Source: a virus | Lineage: Duplodnaviria > Heunggongvirae > Uroviricota > Caudoviricetes | Virus record (IMG/VR): IMGVR_UViG_2563366982_000004 | Length of the DNA stretch: 13,990 bases | Direction: 5' to 3' (one strand) | Shown here: positions 5,094 to 13,990 of the stretch, one piece after another | How the letters are laid out: every line of letters begins with the position of its first letter | Numbering within the stretch: the stretch's first letter is position 1 | Made by a program: the position numbers and the translations under genes | The notes under the pieces: generated by a model | The model's input: the letters and a program-made list of their open reading frames with translations, nothing else | What the model was told of the DNA's origin: nothing | Database searches by the model: none

Positions 5094-5477
5094 ATGCGTG
5101 ATATTCAGATGGTTCTTGAGCGTTGGGGAGCGTGGGCGGCTAATAATCATGAAGATGTGACCTGGTCGTCCGTTGCCGCCGGTTTTAAGGGATTAATTCC
5201 TTCAAAAGTAAAATCTCGCCCGCAATGTTGTGACGATGACGCGATGATCATTTGCGGGTGCATGGCCCGTCTGAAAAAGAACAACAGCGATTTACACGAT
5301 TTATTAGTAGATTATTATGTATGTGGTATGACATTCATGTCACTGGCAAGTAAGCATTGCTGCTCGGATGGTTATATCGGGAAAAGGTTACAGAAGGCTG
5401 AGGGCATAATTGAAGGGATGTTAATGGCATTAGATATCCGGTTAGATATGGATATCGTTGCTAATAATTCTAATTGA
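5094..5477 (+). CDS. quuD: Late-gene antiterminator Q (QuuD-like)
   Basis: [26 protein letters not shown]...[16 protein letters not shown]... matches the DLP12 QuuD-type Q protein. GGAGTAAG lies upstream of the ATG at 5094; the track start at 5079 is probably an upstream in-frame ATG. Confidence 0.8.
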
Positions 5478-5509
5478 TATGCAATTGTTTACTAAAAGTT
5501 ATTAAAAAT

Positions 5510-5528
5510 GGGGCGTGGAAACGCCCCC
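5510..5528 (-). terminator. GC-rich hairpin (GGGGCGT-ggaaa-ACGCCCC) followed on the minus strand by a U-rich tract; candidate intrinsic terminator for the porin transcript
   Basis: 7-bp G/C stem. The downstream minus-strand sequence is ATTTTTAATAA. On the plus strand it is not followed by a T-run. Confidence 0.4.
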
Positions 5529-5614
5529 AAAATAAAGGGTAATATATAACAGAAGGTTTATATAGTAAGAAGCAAGGTAGTGCTTCTAAAGGAAGTGGCT
5601 TGAGGGCTCCACTT

Positions 5615-5656
5615 ATATGTTGCGGAGGCAAAGCCTCCCGCAACATATCTTTTTCG
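5615..5656 (+). terminator. Rho-independent terminator on the plus strand, downstream of Q (tR'-like)
   Basis: ATATGTTGCGGAGGC-aaa-GCCTCCCGCAACATAT, a ~15-bp stem with one bulge, followed by CTTTTTCG. Confidence 0.55.
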
Positions 5657-5665
5657 TAAGTCAGA

Positions 5666-6748
5666 TTAGAACTGATAAACCAGACCTACAGCGACGATGT
5701 CGTCGGTATCAATACCAGCTGTTTTGGTAAACTTACTATCGTCAATTAAGTTGATTTTGTAATCAACAAAAGTGGACATGTTTTTATTAAAGTAGTAAGT
5801 AGCACCGACATCGACATACTTGACTAAGTCTCGGTCACCATGAACACCAAGGTCTTTACCTTTTGACTGAAGGTAAGCAACAGATGGTCGCAGACCGAAG
5901 TCAAACTGATATTGTGCTACTGCTTCAAAGTTTTGTGCTTTGTTTGCAATATGGTTATTACCAAAAACGGTCATATTCTGAGTTTCAGAATATGTGGTAG
6001 CCAGATAGATATTGTTCGCATCATATTTCAGGCCTGCAGCCCATACTTCCGCATTTTTGCCGGAGGCATTGAATTTGCTCTTACCATAGGCGACCTGACC
6101 GTCAGTGCGATCTGATTTAGCATAGGTTGCACCCACGCCGAATCCTTCATACTCATAAGTAGTGGAGAAACCGAAACCATCACCATTGGCTTCAGTTACG
6201 TCAGTGCGGTCATTTTTACCCTGATACTGAGCAGCAAAGTTCAGGCCATCGACCAGACCAAAGAAGTCGTTGTTACGATAAGTTGCAACACCAGTAGTGC
6301 GACCAGTCATGAACACATCTGTTTGGGTCCAGGTATCACCACCGAATTCTGGCAGGACGTCAGTCCACGCACCGATGTCGTATGCTACACCGTAGTTACG
6401 GCCGTAATCGATTGAGCCGTAATCACCAAATTTCAGGCCTGCAAATGCAAGACGGGTTTTGTCTTTGGAAGAACCTTGAGATTCAGCACGGTTGCCTTTG
6501 AATTCATATTCCCACTGACCGAAACCAGTCAGTTGATCGTTGATTTGGGTTTCACCTTTGAAGCCAAGACGGGCATAAGTAGTATCACCATCATCTGCAT
6601 CATTAGAGGAGAAGTAGTGCTTGGCATTAACTTTCCCGTATAGATCCAGCTTGTTACTGTCTTTATTATAAATTTCAGCTGCCTGAGCAGACATCGCCAT
6701 CAGTACTGATGCAGCTACAGCAGAAATTGCCACTGTTAATTTTTTCAT
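5666..6748 (-). CDS. nmpC: OmpC/OmpF-family outer-membrane porin, prophage-encoded (NmpC / Lc type), apparently intact
   Basis: 360 aa with signal peptide [23 protein letters not shown], a full-length porin body and the C-terminal ...VGLVYQF beta-barrel signature. Matches NmpC/Lc. RBS AAGGG lies upstream on the minus strand. Confidence 0.9.
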
Positions 6749-6990
6749 TGTACGCCCTTTTTTTTGAACTATTATTAAAAAATGATGTCACTGCGCGATA
6801 AATATTCATCTAATCAATGCGATTATTTCAAGATGTAAGTTTTAGTTTCTCATTTAATTTGTGAAGTAGATCTCTATTTTTATCTGAACCTTTTCTATCT
6901 AATCCTATTCATGGCTCTTGTTTGAACGAAAATAAATCTATTAGCTAATTTATATTAATGGCACTTATTTATAAGCGCTCTATAATTCTT
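6749..6990 (-). promoter_or_regulatory. A+T-rich upstream region of the porin gene (probable promoter/regulatory region)
   Basis: Long noncoding A+T-rich tract immediately 5' of nmpC on its coding strand. No individual -35/-10 or regulator site can be assigned by eye. Confidence 0.35.
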
Positions 6991-7175
6991 TAACTTAATT
7001 TAAACAAACTAAAAATAACATCGGAAATTATTCATTGGTTATTTGTTGAAGTTTTCTTATGTATTTGTGGTGGTGTTTTGAACACTCGGTGGCATTCTCA
7101 CAAATATCATTTAGTAGTTTACGTACGTAAAAAATTGGTTATGCTGTTAAGAGTGGTTACTTCGTCACACAGCTT

Positions 7176-7208
7176 AAACCCGCCGTCGAGCGGGTTTTTC
7201 CATTTTTT
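7176..7208 (+). terminator. Rho-independent terminator on the plus strand with no ORF upstream (lambda tR'-like: AAACCCGC-cgtcga-GCGGGTTT + TTCCATTTTTTG)
   Basis: 8-bp stem plus T-tract, resembling my recollection of the lambda tR' hairpin (CCGCC...GAGCGGGCTTTTTT). Lies ~130 bp upstream of the holin gene. Confidence 0.55.
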
Positions 7209-7337
7209 GAGTCTCGATATTAGCTGATAACCCAATACCTGAGTTATTCACTGACTCCGAATCTGTTACGTTTCTGCCTTTATTGCGATACGTAGTATCC
7301 CCTTAATTTACACCCGCTTTGTCTGCGAGGTGGGGTT

Positions 7338-7553
7338 ATGAAATCCATGGATAAGTTAACAACGGGTGTCGCCTATGGCACCTCAGCAGGTAGTGCCGGG
7401 TACTGGTTTTTACAGTTGCTCGATAAAGTCACGCCCTCACAGTGGGCGGCAATAGGTGTGCTGGGTAGTCTGGTATTTGGCTTGCTGACGTATCTGACAA
7501 ACCTTTATTTCAAGATTAAAGAAGATAAGCGTAAGGCTGCGAGAGGTGAATAA
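7338..7553 (+). CDS. essD: Class II holin / pinholin (S21-like, EssD-like)
   Basis: 71 aa, [71 protein letters not shown], with two transmembrane segments as in phage 21 S. Stop overlaps the next ATG (TAATG). Confidence 0.85.
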
Positions 7554-7750
7554 TGTCGCCATCATTACGCAAGGCTATTGCTGCTGCTATTGGTGGTGGG
7601 GCTGTTGCCATAGCGTCTGTGCTCATCACTGGTCCGAGTGGTGACGATGGCCTGGAAGGTGTCAGCTACATACCATACAAAGATATTGTTGGTGTATGGA
7701 CTGTATGTCACGGGCATACAGGAAAAGACATCATGCTCGGTAAAACGTAT
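7553..7750 (+). pseudogene. rrrD: 5' fragment of the SAR-endolysin gene (rrrD / R21-like) retained as the head of the J fusion
   Basis: Only ~66 codons of an expected ~165-codon lysozyme are present; the rest of the lysozyme fold is missing. Confidence 0.7.
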
Positions 7751-10700
7751 AAAGGCAGCAGTAAGGGGCATACCCCGCGCGAAGCGAAGGACAACCTGAA
7801 ATCCACGCAGTTACTGAGTGTGATCGATGCCATCAGCGAAGGGCCGATTGAAGGTCCGGTGGATGGGTTAAAAAGCGTGCTACTGAACAGTACGCCGGTG
7901 CTGGACACTGAGGGGAATACCAATATCTCCGGTGTCACGGTGGTGTTCCGGGCAGGTGAGCAGGAGCAGACTCCGCCGGAGGGGTTTGAATCCTCCGGCT
8001 CCGAGACGGTGCTGGGTACGGAAGTGAAATACGACACGCCGATCACCCGCACCATCACGTCGGCAAACATCGACCGTCTGCGTTTTACCTTCGGTGTGCA
8101 GGCACTGGTGGAAACCACTTCAAAGGGTGACCGGAATCCGTCGGAAGTTCGCCTGCTGGTTCAGATACAGCGTAACGGTGGCTGGGTGACGGAAAAAGAC
8201 ATCACCATTAAGGGCAAAACCACCTCGCAGTATCTGGCCTCGGTGGTGGTGGATAACCTGCCTCCGCGCCCGTTCAATATCCGGATGCGCAGGATGACAC
8301 CGGACAGCACCACAGACCAGCTGCAGAACAAAACGCTCTGGTCGTCATACACCGAAATCATCGATATGAAACAGTGCTACCCGAACACGGCACTGGTCGG
8401 TGTGCAGGTGGACTCGGAGCAGTTCGGCAGTCAGCAGGTGAGTCGTAATTATCATCTGCGCGGGCGCATTCTGCAGGTGCCGTCGAACTATAACCCGCAG
8501 ACGCGACAATACAGCGGTATCTGGGACGGAACGTTAAAACCGGCATACAGCAACAACATGGCCTGGTGTCTGTGGGATATGCTGACCCATCCGCGCTACG
8601 GCATGGGGAAACGTCTTGGTGCGGCGGATGTGGACAAATGGGCGCTGTATGTCATCGGCCAGAATTGCGACCAGTCGGTGCCGGATGGTTTTGGTGGCAC
8701 GGAGCCGCGCATCACCTGTAATGCCTGGCTGACCACACAGCGTAAGGCGTGGGATGTTCTCAGTGATTTCTGCTCGGCGATGCGCTGTATGCCGGTATGG
8801 AACGGGCAGACGCTGACGTTCGTGCAGGACCGGCCGTCGGATAAGGTGTGGACCTATAACCGCAGTAATGTGGTGATGCCGGATGATGGCGCGCCGTTCC
8901 GCTACAGTTTCAGCGCCCTGAAGGACCGCCATAATGCCGTTGAGGTGAACTGGATTGACCCGGATAACGGCTGGGAGACGGCGACAGAGCTTGTGGAGGA
9001 CACGCAGGCCATTGCCCGTTACGGTCGTAACGTCACGAAGATGGATGCCTTTGGCTGTACCAGTCGGGGGCAGGCACACCGAGCCGGGCTGTGGCTGATT
9101 AAAACGGAACTGCTGGAAACGCAGACCGTGGATTTCAGCGTGGGCGCAGAAGGGCTTCGCCATGTGCCGGGCGATGTTATTGAAATCTGCGATGATGACT
9201 ATGCGGGTATCAGCATCGGCGGGCGCGTGCTGGCGGTGAACAGCCAGACCCGGACGCTGACGCTCGACCGTGAAATCACTCTGCCATCCTCCGGTACCAC
9301 GCTGATAAGCCTGGTTGACGGAAGCGGCAATCCGGTCAGCGTGGAGGTCCAGTCCGTCACCGACGGCGTGAAGGTAAAAGTGAGCCGGGTTCCTGACGGC
9401 GTTGCCGGATACAGCGTGTGGGGGCTGAAGTTGCCGACGTTGCGCCAGCGCCTGTTCCGCTGCGTGAGTATCCGTGAGAACGATGACGGCACGTATGCCA
9501 TCACTGCCGTGCAGCATGTACCGGAAAAAGAGGCCATCGTGGATAACGGGGCGCACTTTGACGGCGACCAGAGCGGCACGGTGAATGGTGTCACGCCGCC
9601 AGCGGTGCAGCACCTGACTGCCGAAGTCACCGCAGACAGCGGGGAATATCAGGTGCTGGCGCGCTGGGACACGCCGAAGGTGGTGAAGGGGGTGAGCTTT
9701 ATGCTTCGCCTGACCGTGGCAGCGGATGACGGCAGTGAGCGGCTGGTCAGCACGGCCCGGACGACGGAAACCACATACCGCTTCACGCAACTGGCGCTGG
9801 GGCGGTACACGCTGACAGTCCGGGCGGTAAATGCGTGGGGGCAGCAGGGCGATCCGGCGTCGGTATCGTTCCGGATTGCCGCACCGGCAGCACCGTCGAG
9901 GATTGATCTGACGCCGGGCTATTTTCAGATAACCGCCACGCCGCATCTTGCCGTTTATGACCCGACGGTACAGTTTGAATTCTGGTTCTCGGAAAAGCGG
10001 ATTACCGATATCAGGCAGGTTGAAACCACAGCCCGCTATCTTGGCACGGCGCTGTACTGGATAGCTGCCAGTATCAATATTAAGCCGGGCCATGATTATT
10101 ATTTTTATATCCGCAGTGTGAATACTGTTGGCAAATCGGCATTCGTGGAGGCTGTCGGTCAGGCGAGCGATGATGCTTCCGGCTATCTGGATTTTTTCAA
10201 AGGCCAGATAACTGAATCCCATCTCGGCAAGGAGCTGCTGGAAAAAGTCGAGCTGACGGAGGATAACGCCAGCAAACTGGAGGAGTTTTCGAAAGAGTGG
10301 AAAGACGCCAACGATAAATGGAATGCCATGTGGGGCGTCAAAATTGAGCAGACCGAAGACGGCAGGCATTATGTCGCGGGTATTGGCCTCAGCATGGAGG
10401 ATACGGAGGAAGGCAAACTGAGCCAGTTCCTGGTTGCCGCTAACCGTATCGCGTTTATTGACCCGGCAAACGGGAATGAAACGCCGATGTTTGTGGCGCA
10501 GGGCAACCAGATATTCATGAACGAAGTGTTCCTGAAGTATCTGACGGCTCCCACCATTACCAGCGGCGGCAATCCGCCGGTATTTTCCCTGACACCGGAC
10601 GGGCGGTTGACGGCGAAAAATGCCGATATCAGCGGTAACGTGAATGCGAACTCAGGGACGCTCAATAATGTCACGATTAACCAGAACTGTCGGATTCTGG

Positions 10701-11143
10701 GAAAACTGTCTGCCAACCAGATTGAAGGTGATATTGTCAAAACGGTGGGAAAAGCCTTTCCGAGAAATGGCAGTTATGCCAGCGGTACAATAACGGTCAC
10801 TGTGTACGATGACCAGGCTTTTGACCGTCAGATAGTAATCCCACCCGTTCTGTTTCGCGGTGGTAAGCATGAAAACTTCAACAGCAACAACCAACAGTCA
10901 TACTGGTATTCAACCTGTAAGCTGCAGGTACTGAAGAACGGACAGGAAATCTTTCAGCAACCCGCGACGGATGTCAGCAGGGTATTTTCATCCGTCATTG
11001 ATATGCCAGCGGGACACGGCCATGTCACCCTGACTTTCAATGTTTCTTCATATGGTGCAAATAACTGGACGCCAACGACCAGTATCAGCGACCTTCTTGT
11101 TGTCGTGATGAAGAAATCAACAGCCGGTATCAGTATCAGTTGA
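7553..11143 (+). CDS. In-frame chimera: SAR endolysin N-terminus (codons 1..66) fused to lambda J-like host-specificity / tail-tip protein (codons 67..1196)
   Basis: Residues 1..66 ([66 protein letters not shown]) match the signal-anchor-release domain and catalytic start of the phage 21 / RrrD lysozyme. From residue 67 ([32 protein letters not shown]...) it is lambda J from its third codon to the end. Junction is at about nt 7750/7751. GAGGTG RBS is intact upstream of the ATG. Confidence 0.8.
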
Positions 11144-11161
11144 ATTTTATAACCCAAATAC

Positions 11162-11190
11162 GGGCGCCAGAAATGGCGCCTTTTTTATTT
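11162..11190 (+). terminator. Rho-independent terminator between J and stf (GGCGCC-agaaat-GGCGCC followed by TTTTTTATTT)
   Basis: 6-7 bp G/C stem with a T6 tract immediately downstream on the plus strand. Confidence 0.6.
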
Positions 11191-11201
11191 GTGGAGTGAA
11201 T

Positions 11202-13262
11202 ATGGCAGTACAGATTTCAGGCGTGCTGAAAGACGGTGCAGGAAAACCAATACAGAACTGTACTATTCAGCTCAAAGCAAAGCGTAACAGCACCACGGTA
11301 CTGGTGAACACGGTGGCCTCTGAAAATCCGGATGAAGCCGGGCGTTACAGCATGGATGTTGAGTATGGCCAGTACAGCGTCACCCTGCTGGTTGAAGGTT
11401 TTCCGCCTTCACATGCCGGGACCATTACCGTCTATGAAGGTTCCAGACCAGGTACGCTGAATGATTTTCTCGGTGCCATGACGGAAGATGATGTCATGCC
11501 GGAGGCATTGCGTCGTTTTGAGGTAATGGTGGAGGATGTGGCACGCAACGCTGAAGCCGCCTCTCAGAGCGCAGCGGCAGCAAAGAAATCAGAAACAGCA
11601 GCGGCATCGTCCAGGAACGCGGCGAAAACATCAGAGACGAATGCAGGTAACAGCGCGAAAGCGGCAGCTTCTTCAAAAACAGCCGCACAAAACGCAGCAA
11701 CAGCGGCAGAACGTTCAGAGACAAATGCCCGTGCGTCAGAAGAAGCCTCCGCAGACAGTGAAGAGGCTTCCCGCCGTAATGCAGAGTCAGCCGCTGAAAA
11801 TGCCGGAGTCGCCACCACAAAAGCGCGGGAGGCTGCAGCAGACGCAACAAAGGCCGGGCAGAAAAAGGATGAGGCTCTGTCGGCAGCGACACGAGCTGAA
11901 AAGGCGGCAGACCGCGCAGAAGCCGCAGCGGAAGTGACTGCAGAGCCCTATGCGAATATAGTGCCGCCGCTGCCTGATGTGTGGATACCGTTTAACGATT
12001 CACTGGATATGATTGCGGGTTTTTCTCCGGGCTATAAAAAAATAGCTATTGGTGACGATGTGGTTCAGGTCGCCAGTGATAAACAGGTTAATTTCAGTCG
12101 CGCATCAACGGCAACATATATCAACAAATCTGGCGAACTGAAAACGGCGGAAATTAATGAGCCGCGATTTGAGTGTGATGGCCTGCTTATTGAGGGACAA
12201 AGAACGAACTACATGCTCAATTCGGAAAGTCCAGCCAGCTGGGGGAAGTCATCAAACATGGATGTGCCCGAAACCGGGACGGATAGTTTTGGTTTTACTT
12301 ATGGAAAGTTTGTCTGCAACGATTCTCTGGTTGGGCAAACTTCGGCTATTAATATGGCATCAATTGCTGCAACAAAGTCAGTTGATGTCTCAGGCGATAA
12401 CAAGTACGTGACAACCTCATGCCGTTTTAAAACAGAACGACAGGTAAGGTTACGTATACGGTTTGATAAGTATGATGGTAGTGCAACAACTTTTCTTGGC
12501 GATGCGTACATTGATACGCAAACGCTTGAAATTAATATGACAGGTGGTGCTGCCGGCAGAATTACGGCACGAGTCAGGAAGGATAAGACCACGGGCTGGA
12601 TTTTTGCAGAGGCAACGATTCAGGCAATTGATGGTGAGTTAAAAATAGGCTCTCAGATACAGTATTCTCCTGAGCAGGGTGGGGCAACAGTATCTGGTGA
12701 CTATATTTATCTTGCCACCCCACAAGTAGAGAATGGGCCGTGTGTATCATCATTTATTATTTCAGGAGGCAGCGCAACGACAAGAGCCAGTGATTTGGTT
12801 AGTATCCCCACCAGAAATAATCTTTATAAGTTACCATTTACTTTTTTACTTGAGATTCATAAAAACTGGGATATTGCACCAAACGCCGCACCCCGCGTGT
12901 GGGATATAGCAGCAGCCAATACCGGGCAATCAGCAATTGCAGCAATCAACAGAGGTAGTGGTAAGTTATATATGAGTCTGTCAAACCCTTCAGGCTCGTA
13001 TGTTAATAGCGCAGCGACAGATGTATTTGCAGAGAAAACCACATTTGGATGTATTGCAAAAGCTGATGGTCACTTTCATGTGGTGACAAATGGTAAAGCG
13101 GTTAATGAAGTTTATTGTGAATATAATGGCGTGACCGCTGATAAAAATATCCGATTTGGAGGGCAGACGAATACTGGAGAACGACATCTGTTTGGCCATA
13201 TTCGCAATTTCCGCATATGGCATAAAGAATTAAATGACAGGCAATTAAAAGAGGTCGTATGA
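11202..13262 (+). CDS. stf: Side tail fiber protein (Stf-like): lambda-type N-terminal tail-attachment domain, Ala/Ser-rich repeat linker, and a distinct C-terminal putative receptor-binding domain
   Basis: N-terminus MAVQISGVLKDGAGKPIQNCTIQLKAKRNSTTVLVNTVASENPDEAGRYSMDVEYGQYSV... matches the lambda Stf N-terminus. Probable start is the ATG at 11202 (GGAG 5 nt upstream); the track start at 11196 is GTG. The C-terminal ~440 aa are unlike lambda Stf and end ...RFGGQTNTGERHLFGHIRNFRIWHKELNDRQLKEVV. Confidence 0.8.
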   Translation: MAVQISGVLKDGAGKPIQNCTIQLKAKRNSTTVLVNTVASENPDEAGRYSMDVEYGQYSVTLLVEGFPPSHAGTITVYEGSRPGTLNDFLGAMTEDDVMPEALRRFEVMVEDVARNAEAASQSAAAAKKSETAAASSRNAAKTSETNAGNSAKAAASSKTAAQNAATAAERSETNARASEEASADSEEASRRNAESAAENAGVATTKAREAAADATKAGQKKDEALSAATRAEKAADRAEAAAEVTAEPYANIVPPLPDVWIPFNDSLDMIAGFSPGYKKIAIGDDVVQVASDKQVNFSRASTATYINKSGELKTAEINEPRFECDGLLIEGQRTNYMLNSESPASWGKSSNMDVPETGTDSFGFTYGKFVCNDSLVGQTSAINMASIAATKSVDVSGDNKYVTTSCRFKTERQVRLRIRFDKYDGSATTFLGDAYIDTQTLEINMTGGAAGRITARVRKDKTTGWIFAEATIQAIDGELKIGSQIQYSPEQGGATVSGDYIYLATPQVENGPCVSSFIISGGSATTRASDLVSIPTRNNLYKLPFTFLLEIHKNWDIAPNAAPRVWDIAAANTGQSAIAAINRGSGKLYMSLSNPSGSYVNSAATDVFAEKTTFGCIAKADGHFHVVTNGKAVNEVYCEYNGVTADKNIRFGGQTNTGERHLFGHIRNFRIWHKELNDRQLKEVV
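11565..11940 (+). repeat. Low-complexity Ala/Ser/Glu/Lys-rich repeat region inside stf (degenerate SETNA / AAxxA-type units)
   Basis: Translation ...AAKKSETAAASSRNAAKTSETNAGNSAKAAASSKTAAQNAATAAERSETNARASEEA.... The GC-rich repetitive DNA also generates the spurious overlapping ORFs seen on both strands here. Confidence 0.5.
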
Positions 13263-13537
13263 AAGATTTAACTTTGAAGTTTCATGACAAACTGCAGTTT
13301 AAGGCCTTCCTGTCATCTCTTGGCTGGGCGGAAGATGAAGACCTCCAGAATAAACTGTTAGTTGATGAAATTGGTTTCACCTACACAGAAACAGGGGTAA
13401 CAGAAGAGGGAGAACCTGTCTGTATCCGGAATGATGGTTATTTTGTCAACATTCGCATTCTTGATGACTTGTTTGATGTTTCTGTATTCTCTGATTATGT
13501 CGTGGAGCTGGAAACACCGCTTCGGGAATGGAGCTGA
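13259..13537 (+). CDS. Hypothetical acidic 92-aa protein, translationally coupled to stf (ATGA overlap); function unknown
   Basis: ATG overlaps the stf stop. No similarity I can recognise to lambda Tfa or T4 gp38-type fibre chaperones. A+T-rich. Confidence 0.45.
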   Translation: MKDLTLKFHDKLQFKAFLSSLGWAEDEDLQNKLLVDEIGFTYTETGVTEEGEPVCIRNDGYFVNIRILDDLFDVSVFSDYVVELETPLREWS

Positions 13538-13549
13538 AAGGAGGAAATA

Positions 13550-13990
13550 ATGGATATAAGCCCCTTACTTCATGCACTTTGTGCTGTGGCTGCGCAGATA
13601 CTGGTTGGTCTTTTTACCGGAAACTGGGCTTACGGAGCGATAGCCGGTTGTACGTTCTTCATTGCGCGTGAACATACCCAGGCAGAATATCGCTGGATTG
13701 AAATGTTCGGGCATGGCAAGCGAATGAATATGCCGTGGTGGGGCGGTTTTGATCCGCGTGCTTGGGATGTGGCAAGCCTGATGGATTTTGCTGTGCCGGT
13801 GGTGGCGTGTCTGCTGGTCTGGCTGTTGGTTAATCGTGGGCGAAAAAAGGTGAGCTGTATATGCAACGGAGGAAGAAACCCCGTTGCTGGAAGCCAGGAA
13901 AAAGTATCGGGTGTTGCTGTCCTCGGATGTTGTGCTAATTGGGTGATAACAGATCCTGTGTATGGGAGTTTCCCTTTTTGCGTGCGTTGA
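13550..13990 (+). CDS. Hypothetical small membrane protein (two or three predicted hydrophobic helices); 3' boundary uncertain, stop coincides with the window end
   Basis: Strong RBS AAAGGAGG 7 nt upstream of the ATG. Hydrophobic segments LLHALCAVAAQILVGLFTGNWAYGAIAGCTFFIA and VASLMDFAVPVVACLLVWLLV. The last ~45 codons are Cys/Gly-rich and look less protein-like. Confidence 0.4.
   Translation: MDISPLLHALCAVAAQILVGLFTGNWAYGAIAGCTFFIAREHTQAEYRWIEMFGHGKRMNMPWWGGFDPRAWDVASLMDFAVPVVACLLVWLLVNRGRKKVSCICNGGRNPVAGSQEKVSGVAVLGCCANWVITDPVYGSFPFCVR

Follow-up and report, generated by a model that had tools for sequence, protein, structure and literature searches.

Several phages carry accessory or exclusion genes after their tail genes, for example lom and bor in lambda, cor in phi80, N15 and T1-like phages, llp in T5, gp15 in HK97, and gtrABC and sieA in P22. 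The same region can also hold genes for fibre helpers, as with the Tfa proteins of lambda and Mu (Caudo_TAP family, PF02413). Separately encoded fibre chaperones further include the "chaperone caps" gp27 of Alteromonas phage V22 and gp9 of A5 (PMC10579305), and the lateral fibre of the phage IrisVonRoten (Bas32) has been modelled with a galectin-like C terminus on its proximal part and a T-shaped distal fibre that has an intramolecular chaperone (PMC11990801). Here, we analyze a stretch of caudoviral DNA of 13,990 nucleotides (nt) (IMG/VR record IMGVR_UViG_2563366982_000004; hereafter the window), in which the side tail fibre gene stf is followed by two small open reading frames (ORFs), ORF-A and ORF-B (Table 1). 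An earlier note on this DNA, made from the letters alone, placed them in the position of a tail fibre assembly gene (tfa) and proposed that they were a novel fibre chaperone or cargo, such as a superinfection exclusion or membrane-acting module. The reading that we prefer, with a probability of about 60%, is that ORF-A would be the partner of the fibre tip, ORF-B an independent, host-directed membrane protein, and the sequence behind ORF-B a leftover of tfa.

The case for ORF-A comes from its association with one part of Stf. The N-terminal ~250 amino acids (aa) of the fibre are a lambdoid anchor and coiled region (Pfam phage_tail_N, 4.8e-67, residues 3-133), and the distal module that follows matched the NCBIfam model GTA_spike_fiber at residues 331-531 and the Pfam domain Laminin_G_3 at residues 562-683, the PHROG matches of Stf being phrog_1419 and phrog_5939. 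The protein is 98% identical to the Stf of phage 21, and only its distal ~435 residues resemble, at 36-54% identity, the fibre C termini of T1-like, Dhillonvirus, T5-like and rV5-like phages and of other prophages. By tblastn, this distal domain (query, Stf residues 330-688) was detected in 208 phage records. For ORF-A the number was 191, with many virulent phages among them, and the two sets are nearly the same when the records are sorted by organism name (Salmonella, 17/17; Campylobacter-labelled, 8/8; Enterobacteria, 4/4; Dhillonvirus, 3/3; Shigella, 2/2). Lambdoid, T1-like, T5-like, Dhillonvirus, JenP-like and rV5-like phages all have ORF-A and the distal domain together, and across unrelated phages ORF-A is 42-54% identical while the fibres are similar in their distal ~435 residues only. 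Furthermore, in every locus inspected, the start of ORF-A lies at the stop codon of the fibre gene or overlaps it, namely in phage 21, ityhuna (T1-like, Drexlerviridae), T5_ev219, rolling (Dhillonvirus), nimi (Vequintavirus), Lambda_2E9 and three prophage types. The window itself has this arrangement, the ATG of ORF-A overlapping the stf stop codon (GTATGA), which bears out the tight coupling of an acidic 92-aa protein (isoelectric point, 4.2) to stf described in the earlier note. The content of guanine plus cytosine (GC) is 0.55 in the N-terminal part of stf, 0.44 in the distal part, 0.42 in ORF-A and 0.53 in ORF-B, and the steps at ~11946, inside stf, and at 13538-13550 are the borders of an imported segment that comprises the fibre tip and ORF-A. 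On the strength of the co-occurrence, the coupling, the GC steps and the selection described below, the lectin-like fibre tip and ORF-A form a mobile two-gene cassette that is exchanged horizontally, and ORF-A is most likely the tip's own accessory or assembly protein. We infer from the same comparisons that ORF-A would bind Stf physically and have chaperone activity. For the 92-aa protein, the earlier idea of a novel fibre chaperone is thus a good one. Of note, in the records of the lambdoid phages 4A7, Lambda_4C10, 1W and 3W, the Stf match ends ~316 residues into the 359-aa query and the ORF-A/ORF-B/sitD block picks up after another ~2.5 kb, an arrangement suggestive of an insertion within the 3' end of stf.

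ORF-A is a real, conserved gene under purifying selection, with a ratio of nonsynonymous to synonymous substitution rates (dN/dS) of 0.15 to 0.34. It corresponds to phrog_1361, a family of unknown function (3.2e-42, residues 1-91 of the 92-position profile), and is 96.7% identical over 92 aa to CPT_21_23 of phage 21. A first protein search returned 47 relatives, from Escherichia and Shigella, and 328 came from a profile search; no protein of either set is named or has a Pfam domain. ORF-A itself had no Caudo_TAP match in Pfam, where the sole match at E<=1 was LUD_dom (0.29), no match in NCBIfam and none at E<=1 among the PADLOC models; ORF-B did not match Caudo_TAP either, in keeping with the earlier view that neither protein is of the Tfa/gp38 type. 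AlphaFold2 predicted a compact fold for the ORF-A monomer, with a predicted local distance difference test score (pLDDT) of 90. A profile search of PDB sequences gave matches with E>0.4 only, the comparison of the fold with solved structures gave no significant match, and Foldseek against viral models retrieved only uncharacterised phage proteins of 64 to 121 aa. The predicted fold is thus without a characterised structural relative.

ORF-B also is a real, conserved gene under purifying selection (dN/dS, 0.15-0.31). It starts at 13550 behind the motif AAGGAGG, at the place where the phage 21 record annotates a ribosome binding site, and its product is hydrophobic, so that its description as a small membrane protein with a strong ribosome binding site was apt. 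The 97-aa protein is 100% identical over its length to CPT_21_24 of phage 21 and falls into phrog_1443, another family of unknown function (2.4e-58, residues 1-96 of 97). The first search yielded 577 relatives, including proteins of 57-68% identity in Comamonas, Aeromonas, Salmonella, Citrobacter and Leclercia, and an exhaustive profile search extended the family to 433 clusters at 50% identity, in all of which the protein is short and stands without a fused domain (typical length, 95-100 aa; nearly all homologues, 90-140 aa; close homologues, 95-102 aa; 150 representatives of the wider family, nearly all 60-140 aa). In 57 diverse members, R40, E41 and W72 are invariant and H8, Q44, A45, E46 and P83 nearly so. 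The AlphaFold2 model (pLDDT, 94) has helices at residues 4-23, 26-53 and 74-96, and the hydropathy profile shows two N-terminal hydrophobic stretches and one C-terminal stretch around a polar segment at residues 40-73; we infer from the model that the conserved polar residues would cluster at one membrane face. No family was matched in Pfam or NCBIfam, no PADLOC model at E<=1 and no PDB sequence in a profile search, and a Pfam scan of the 57 diverse relatives gave scattered sub-threshold matches only. The profile searches called for in the earlier note brought no confident homology of either protein to a fibre chaperone, a structural protein or a lysis protein, and both ORFs are conserved in related prophages. 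We also considered ORF-B as a lipoprotein of the Cor/Llp type, given an IAGC motif at residues 31-34 in the enterobacterial subgroup, and rejected it: Cys34 is not kept family-wide, and the IAGC segment is modelled as membrane helix.

The genomic contexts of ORF-B differ from those of ORF-A. The phage records with ORF-B number 72, and the inspected virulent carriers of ORF-A all lack it. In a common type of lambdoid prophage (L013-L016), a Peptidase_S74 fibre gene stands between ORF-A and ORF-B. Elsewhere, ORF-B lies after the tailspike gene and before int in the P22-like JEP4, behind a fibre that bears its own S74 chaperone domain in a P2-like prophage of Leclercia, behind a Tfa homologue in Halomonas phiHAP-1, behind a tailspike-type protein in Desulfovibrio, behind a J-like protein and a small ORF and ahead of lysis genes in Comamonas, and, in two betaproteobacterial loci, just upstream of the Avd gene of a diversity-generating retroelement. 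ORF-B is also chromosomal: five Aeromonas genomes (L004, L024, L026, L030 and L031; ~6001-6309) have it at the same non-prophage site between the genes for pirin and RIO1 kinase, and in alphaproteobacteria, including sphingomonads, it adjoins ligA, the genes for PNPase, FtsZ and cyclopropane-fatty-acid synthase, and other housekeeping genes. Since the contexts of ORF-A and ORF-B differ, ORF-B is not a component of the fibre system of the window, and the idea that the two genes make up one module has to be given up: ORF-A occurs in virulent phages without ORF-B, and ORF-B occurs behind unrelated receptor-binding genes and on chromosomes. We conclude that ORF-B belongs to a cellular family of small membrane proteins that is often carried by temperate phages at the end of the tail operon. 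By these comparisons, its conservation across proteobacterial classes and its chromosomal copies would not fit a receptor-specific exclusion protein. A joint transfer with sitABCD was considered as well and rejected, ORF-B being without sit genes in most contexts.

Some of these loci hold further features. In the L013-L016 prophages (6402-8301), ORF-B is followed by a hairpin and then by genes for a retron-like reverse transcriptase and a SLATT-domain protein, a pair that looks like a retron-type defence system; judged by eye, hairpins resembling intrinsic terminators lie 3' of ORF-B in several loci. In Comamonas nitrativorans and Pigmentiphaga humi (L048/L050; 4785-6691), ORF-B stands between the Avd gene and an ORF of 370 to 383 aa that may encode a variable receptor-binding protein. 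Two lipid A acyltransferase genes lie near the Aeromonas site. In Comamonas kerstersii (L027; 4551-6294), the order is a phrog_5939-type tail protein, a 95-aa ORF, ORF-B, an endolysin-like ORF and an Rz-like spanin; the 95-aa ORF resembles ORF-A by eye, and its comparison with ORF-A gave E 0.01 and a probability of 4% in hhalign and nothing in hmmsearch.

The 3' end of ORF-B, rightly called doubtful in the earlier note, is explained by a lost stop codon. Phage 21, Lambda_2E9 and a prophage of Escherichia ruysiae have TGA where the window has CGA, and this change turns the 97-codon gene into a 146-aa read-through to 13990, so that the length of 146 aa is an artefact. PGAP labels the identical ORF-B locus a pseudogene. 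A 62-nt probe centred on codon 13841 was exact in 77 of the 1739 Escherichia coli records with this segment, and 1634 of the 1739 fell into the band for one to three mismatches, in which TGA is not proven for each record. From 13841 to 13990, the window comprises a brief spacer, a relic, in another frame, of a lambda-type tfa 3' end, a further 15 nt, and the final 56 nt of sitD in antisense. The Cys/Gly-rich last ~45 codons of the 146-aa ORF read the relic out of frame and then antisense sitD and are not a genuine end of the gene. Likewise, the stop noticed at the window edge does lie there and is without significance, being inside antisense sitD. Beyond 13990, matching records continue with sitD on the opposite strand.

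The relic matched Caudo_TAP at profile positions 95-115 (E 0.0062, 17.1 bits), below the 22.1-bit cut-off because just 20 codons are left. A fuller relic of 40 aa in E. ruysiae L020 scored 63.2 bits (E 3.4e-17), is 87-90% identical to the C terminus of lambda Tfa and also matches annotated tail fibre assembly genes of many phages. A stop codon directly upstream in the relic's frame makes it a relic and not a gene. The homology to tfa ends at ~13919, 15 nt short of the sitD stop (CTA on the plus strand, 13935-13937), and the end of sitD is the start of the convergent sitDCBA cargo. A tfa gene thus once stood at this locus, as the position after stf had led one to expect, and has been overwritten from the left by the segment with the fibre tip, ORF-A and ORF-B and from the right by the sit cargo; it was destroyed while stf and ORF-A are intact. 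Between stf and sitD, a terminator scan of 11000-13990 found nothing, and the spacer between ORF-B and sitD folds no more stably than shuffled sequences (z -1.05), which leaves a bidirectional terminator there unsupported.

Our working model combines these elements. ORF-A would be the cognate partner of the lectin-like distal fibre domain, made in step with Stf through the overlapping stop and start codons, and most likely acts as a cytoplasmic assembly or stabilising factor of the fibre tip, possibly as a transient cap. It would take over the job that Tfa does for lambda-type fibres and so fill the role of the destroyed tfa. ORF-B would be an independent small protein of the inner membrane that acts on the cell and not on the virion, its polar cluster (H8, R40, E41, Q44, E46 and W72) binding a conserved ligand or protein of the envelope from one membrane face, which could alter the envelope or keep other phages from entering. 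This host-directed action at the inner membrane through a conserved polar site, drawn from the model and the conserved residues, is proposed with low confidence. The sequence 3' of ORF-B is what remains of the tfa displaced by the segment with fibre tip, ORF-A and ORF-B and by the sitABCD cargo. With its stop codon lost, the ORF-B of the window is probably decaying, which fits a defective prophage.

Several observations weigh against this model. In Lambda_2E9, ORF-A is 90% identical to that of the window and the distal domain of the fibre just 37%, the exchange point lying within the final ~36 codons of stf, where the domain is most conserved, so that ORF-A does not track the variable surface of the fibre. 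The gene right after ORF-A encodes, in many loci, a second fibre protein, which is short and has a Peptidase_S74 domain. The side fibres of phage 21 virions are themselves putative. With respect to ORF-B, the orientation of the protein in the membrane is ambiguous, since the charges of the conserved loop are balanced. A scan of 11000-13990 for promoter consensus sequences found none between stf and sitD, the number of sites being no higher than in shuffled sequence. In several phages, the start of ORF-B overlaps the preceding late gene, which points to late expression in the lytic cycle and not expression in the lysogen. Finally, ORF-B lies behind a fibre of the phrog_1419/5939 type in 7 of 58 genomic loci, including Comamonas and Chelativorans, which hints at some tie to this fibre.

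A broader version of the same account has ORF-B as an ancient, hitherto undescribed membrane protein family of ~97 aa with a fixed polar site and a cellular role in some proteobacteria, repeatedly captured by temperate phages of many tail types and put behind their receptor-binding genes, and ORF-A as a new structural class of chaperone or cap for lectin-like tips. ORF-B might then, for example, modulate a conserved step that involves envelope glycans or lipid carriers and thereby alter the receptors of glycan-binding fibres. We regard this extended reading as a rather unlikely one.

The second fibre genes, taken with the published model of branched T5-like fibres, keep another role of ORF-A alive as a rival, although we give it only limited probability: that of a structural adaptor on the lectin-like tip to which a second, distal S74 fibre docks, and which would be a leftover in prophages of the phage 21 type. 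An S74 second fibre directly follows ORF-A in the E. coli prophages L013-L016 (234 aa; 5292-5996) and L017-L019 (246-342 aa; 5341-6390), two small ORFs after ORF-A in ityhuna resemble, by eye, a split S74-type fibre, and a 573-aa protein follows ORF-A in T5_ev219. In the published model, the T-shaped distal fibre is likewise attached to a T5-like proximal fibre that has a C-terminal galectin-like domain (PMC11990801). However, ORF-A is intact, with a dN/dS of ~0.3, in phage 21, Lambda_2E9 and relatives that lack a second fibre gene, and the genes that follow it in rolling and nimi do not encode S74 proteins.

As to ORF-B, its position invites the proposal of a late membrane factor tied to receptor-binding proteins, which would serve the maturation of fibres or tailspikes or spare new virions from being trapped on the envelope. 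In at least six tail architectures that are unrelated to one another, ORF-B does come right after a receptor-binding gene or its helper. JEP4, phiHAP-1, Chelativorans (L046) and Desulfovibrio (L081) have the start of ORF-B at or over the end of the gene before it, and the undetected promoter and the 7 of 58 loci with a phrog_1419/5939 fibre upstream point the same way. We nevertheless consider this proposal unlikely: ORF-B has syntenic non-prophage copies on the chromosomes of Aeromonas and sphingomonads and is absent from the inspected virulent phages that have the same fibre module, and its position alone is weak evidence because accessory genes in general tend to land at the end of tail operons.

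A lysis function of ORF-B, as a holin, antiholin or lysis-timing factor, would agree with a small protein of three hydrophobic helices, with its place just upstream of the endolysin-like ORF and Rz-like spanin in C. kerstersii and with a Phage_holin_8 match (E 0.0036) in 1 of 57 family members, but it is very improbable, as that match is far below any cut-off, the protein has no charged C-terminal tail and its second and third helices are separated by a long polar loop that is conserved, the lysis genes of the E. coli relative (essD and a glycoside hydrolase fragment) are at another place, upstream of J, and the chromosomal orthologues sit among housekeeping genes, adjacency to lysis genes being seen in Comamonas only.

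We attach as little credence to the idea that the lineage has gained a genuine new protein, either the 146-aa read-through product or the 25-codon ORF from the ATG at 13861 (MQRRKKPRCWKPGKSIGCCCPRMLC; 13861-13938, plus strand; ~6314-6373 in E. ruysiae L020 and L021), which the earlier note had raised as an alternative. The read-through is open to 13990 and its 146-aa sequence recurs as a cluster of 205 proteins, but the extension crosses the relic out of frame and then antisense sitD, has none of the conserved features of the ORF-B family, and depends on the CGA allele, exact in the 77 records mentioned above. The short ORF is preceded by an AGGTGA motif, 7 nt upstream, and its four differences from L020 are all synonymous; against this, L021 has two amino acid changes, and the stop at codon 20 in both E. 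ruysiae alleles leaves 19 codons. From these few comparisons, it is probably not a gene and would be an out-of-frame reading of the tfa relic.

The origin of the window is consistent with the decay of ORF-B. Its last 7.5 kb are 100% identical to the chromosomes of several human E. coli isolates, such as strain M1/5, and positions 13100-13990 are 98.9% identical to phage 21 (OL657228), in which the order is J, stf, CPT_21_23 (hypothetical), CPT_21_24 ("putative membrane protein") and, on the opposite strand, sitDCBA, followed by attP and int at icd. On a sequence-identical E. coli chromosome, a holin gene lies upstream, the adjoining glycoside hydrolase fragment runs directly into J, and the host genes of the icd side come after sitABCD; PGAP describes a truncated glycoside hydrolase continuing into a truncated J. 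The fusion ORF of the window (Table 1) points to a deletion from the lysis gene to J, which removed the head genes and most tail genes and left a defective remnant. Judged by its sequence, the prophage is thus defective and phage-21-like. Just upstream of its lysis genes, a 360-aa ORF on the minus strand (5666-6748) is annotated as the porin OmpC in matching E. coli chromosomes and may be a prophage-associated porin copy.

Table 1. Features of the window around stf, ORF-A and ORF-B
Feature	Position (nt)	Strand	Basis
Endolysin-like N terminus fused to tail tip protein J, single 1196-aa ORF	7553-11143	+	ORF list
stf, side tail fibre, 688 aa, GTG start, intact	11196-13262	+	ORF list
Distal fibre module, Stf residues ~251-688, lectin-like	11946-13259	+	Fibre C-terminus comparisons, GC
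ORF-A, 92 aa, acidic alpha/beta protein (predicted fold), phrog_1361	13259-13537	+	ORF list, PHROG, AlphaFold2
Shine-Dalgarno sequence AAGGAGG, 5 nt upstream of the ORF-B start	13538-13544	+	Sequence
ORF-B proper, 97 codons, small membrane protein with three predicted helices, phrog_1443	13550-13840	+	PHROG, family, AlphaFold2
Lost stop codon, CGA (TGA in relatives)	13841-13843	+	Alignment, probe, PGAP
Relic of the 3' end of a lambda-type tfa, reads YATEEETPLLEARKKYRVLL	13860-13919	+	Translation, Caudo_TAP profile
sitD 3' end, last 56 nt including the stop; iron/manganese ABC transporter permease	13935-13990	-	Annotations in 100% and 98.9% identical records

Both genes were already known as the families phrog_1361 and phrog_1443 and as the "hypothetical" and "putative membrane protein" genes of phage 21; compared with PHROGs and the phage 21 records, the linkage of ORF-A to the fibre, the spread of the families and the tfa relic are new. 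The genome announcement of phage 21 (PMC9119081) and two BASEL papers do not discuss ORF-A or ORF-B, the small intervening gene of the branched T5-like fibre locus is not discussed in PMC11990801, and a full-text literature search on exclusion proteins encoded behind tail genes had no result. The cassette of fibre tip and ORF-A crosses lambdoid, T1-like, T5-like, Dhillonvirus and rV5-like coliphages, in which ORF-A is annotated merely as hypothetical; swaps of lectin-type fibres, whether to change host range or to retarget tailocins, probably need the 92-aa gene too, as is the case with Tfa. ORF-B is among the more widespread unannotated small membrane proteins beside phage receptor-binding genes, and its few invariant polar residues allow a clean mutational test. 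The locus also holds a lesson for annotation, since what looks like a 146-aa gene behind a strong ribosome binding site is in fact a 97-aa gene that has lost its stop codon and reads through a tfa relic into antisense sitD.

Compared with the accessory genes known from the end of tail clusters, ORF-B has much in common: it encodes a small predicted envelope protein, stands at the end of the tail or receptor-binding cluster, often with a terminator-like hairpin behind it, and lies beside other cargo (sitABCD here, the retron-like reverse transcriptase in L013). It differs from them in having no sequence or profile similarity to them and no PADLOC match, and in not belonging to a lipoprotein family. 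Unlike receptor-specific exclusion proteins, it is far more conserved, ranges far more widely across proteobacterial classes and phage types, and has chromosomal orthologues.

The locus of ORF-A shares with the branched fibres of T5-like phages the homology of the distal Stf module, and many ORF-A loci have the same order as these phages, that is, a long fibre gene, a small gene and a second, S74 fibre gene. The window lacks a second fibre gene, unlike the branched T5-like set, and the Pfam scan found no Peptidase_S74 domain on Stf itself, the C terminus of which is a domain of the Laminin_G_3 type. With the Tfa proteins of lambda and Mu, ORF-A shares a small gene directly 3' of the fibre gene and co-inheritance with the distal fibre domain across phage families, and it occupies the tfa slot, the relic of tfa itself lying 320 nt further on. 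It departs from them in having no Caudo_TAP match, in its size (92 aa versus ~190-240 aa) and in a predicted alpha/beta fold without a solved match. The putative client of its chaperone role also differs, being a lectin-like beta-sandwich instead of a fibre tip of the lambda/Mu type. As the genetics of ORF-A are Tfa-like and its sequence, size and fold are not, the locus is best described as an arrangement of a fibre plus its cognate helper, in which ORF-A is no member of the Tfa family.

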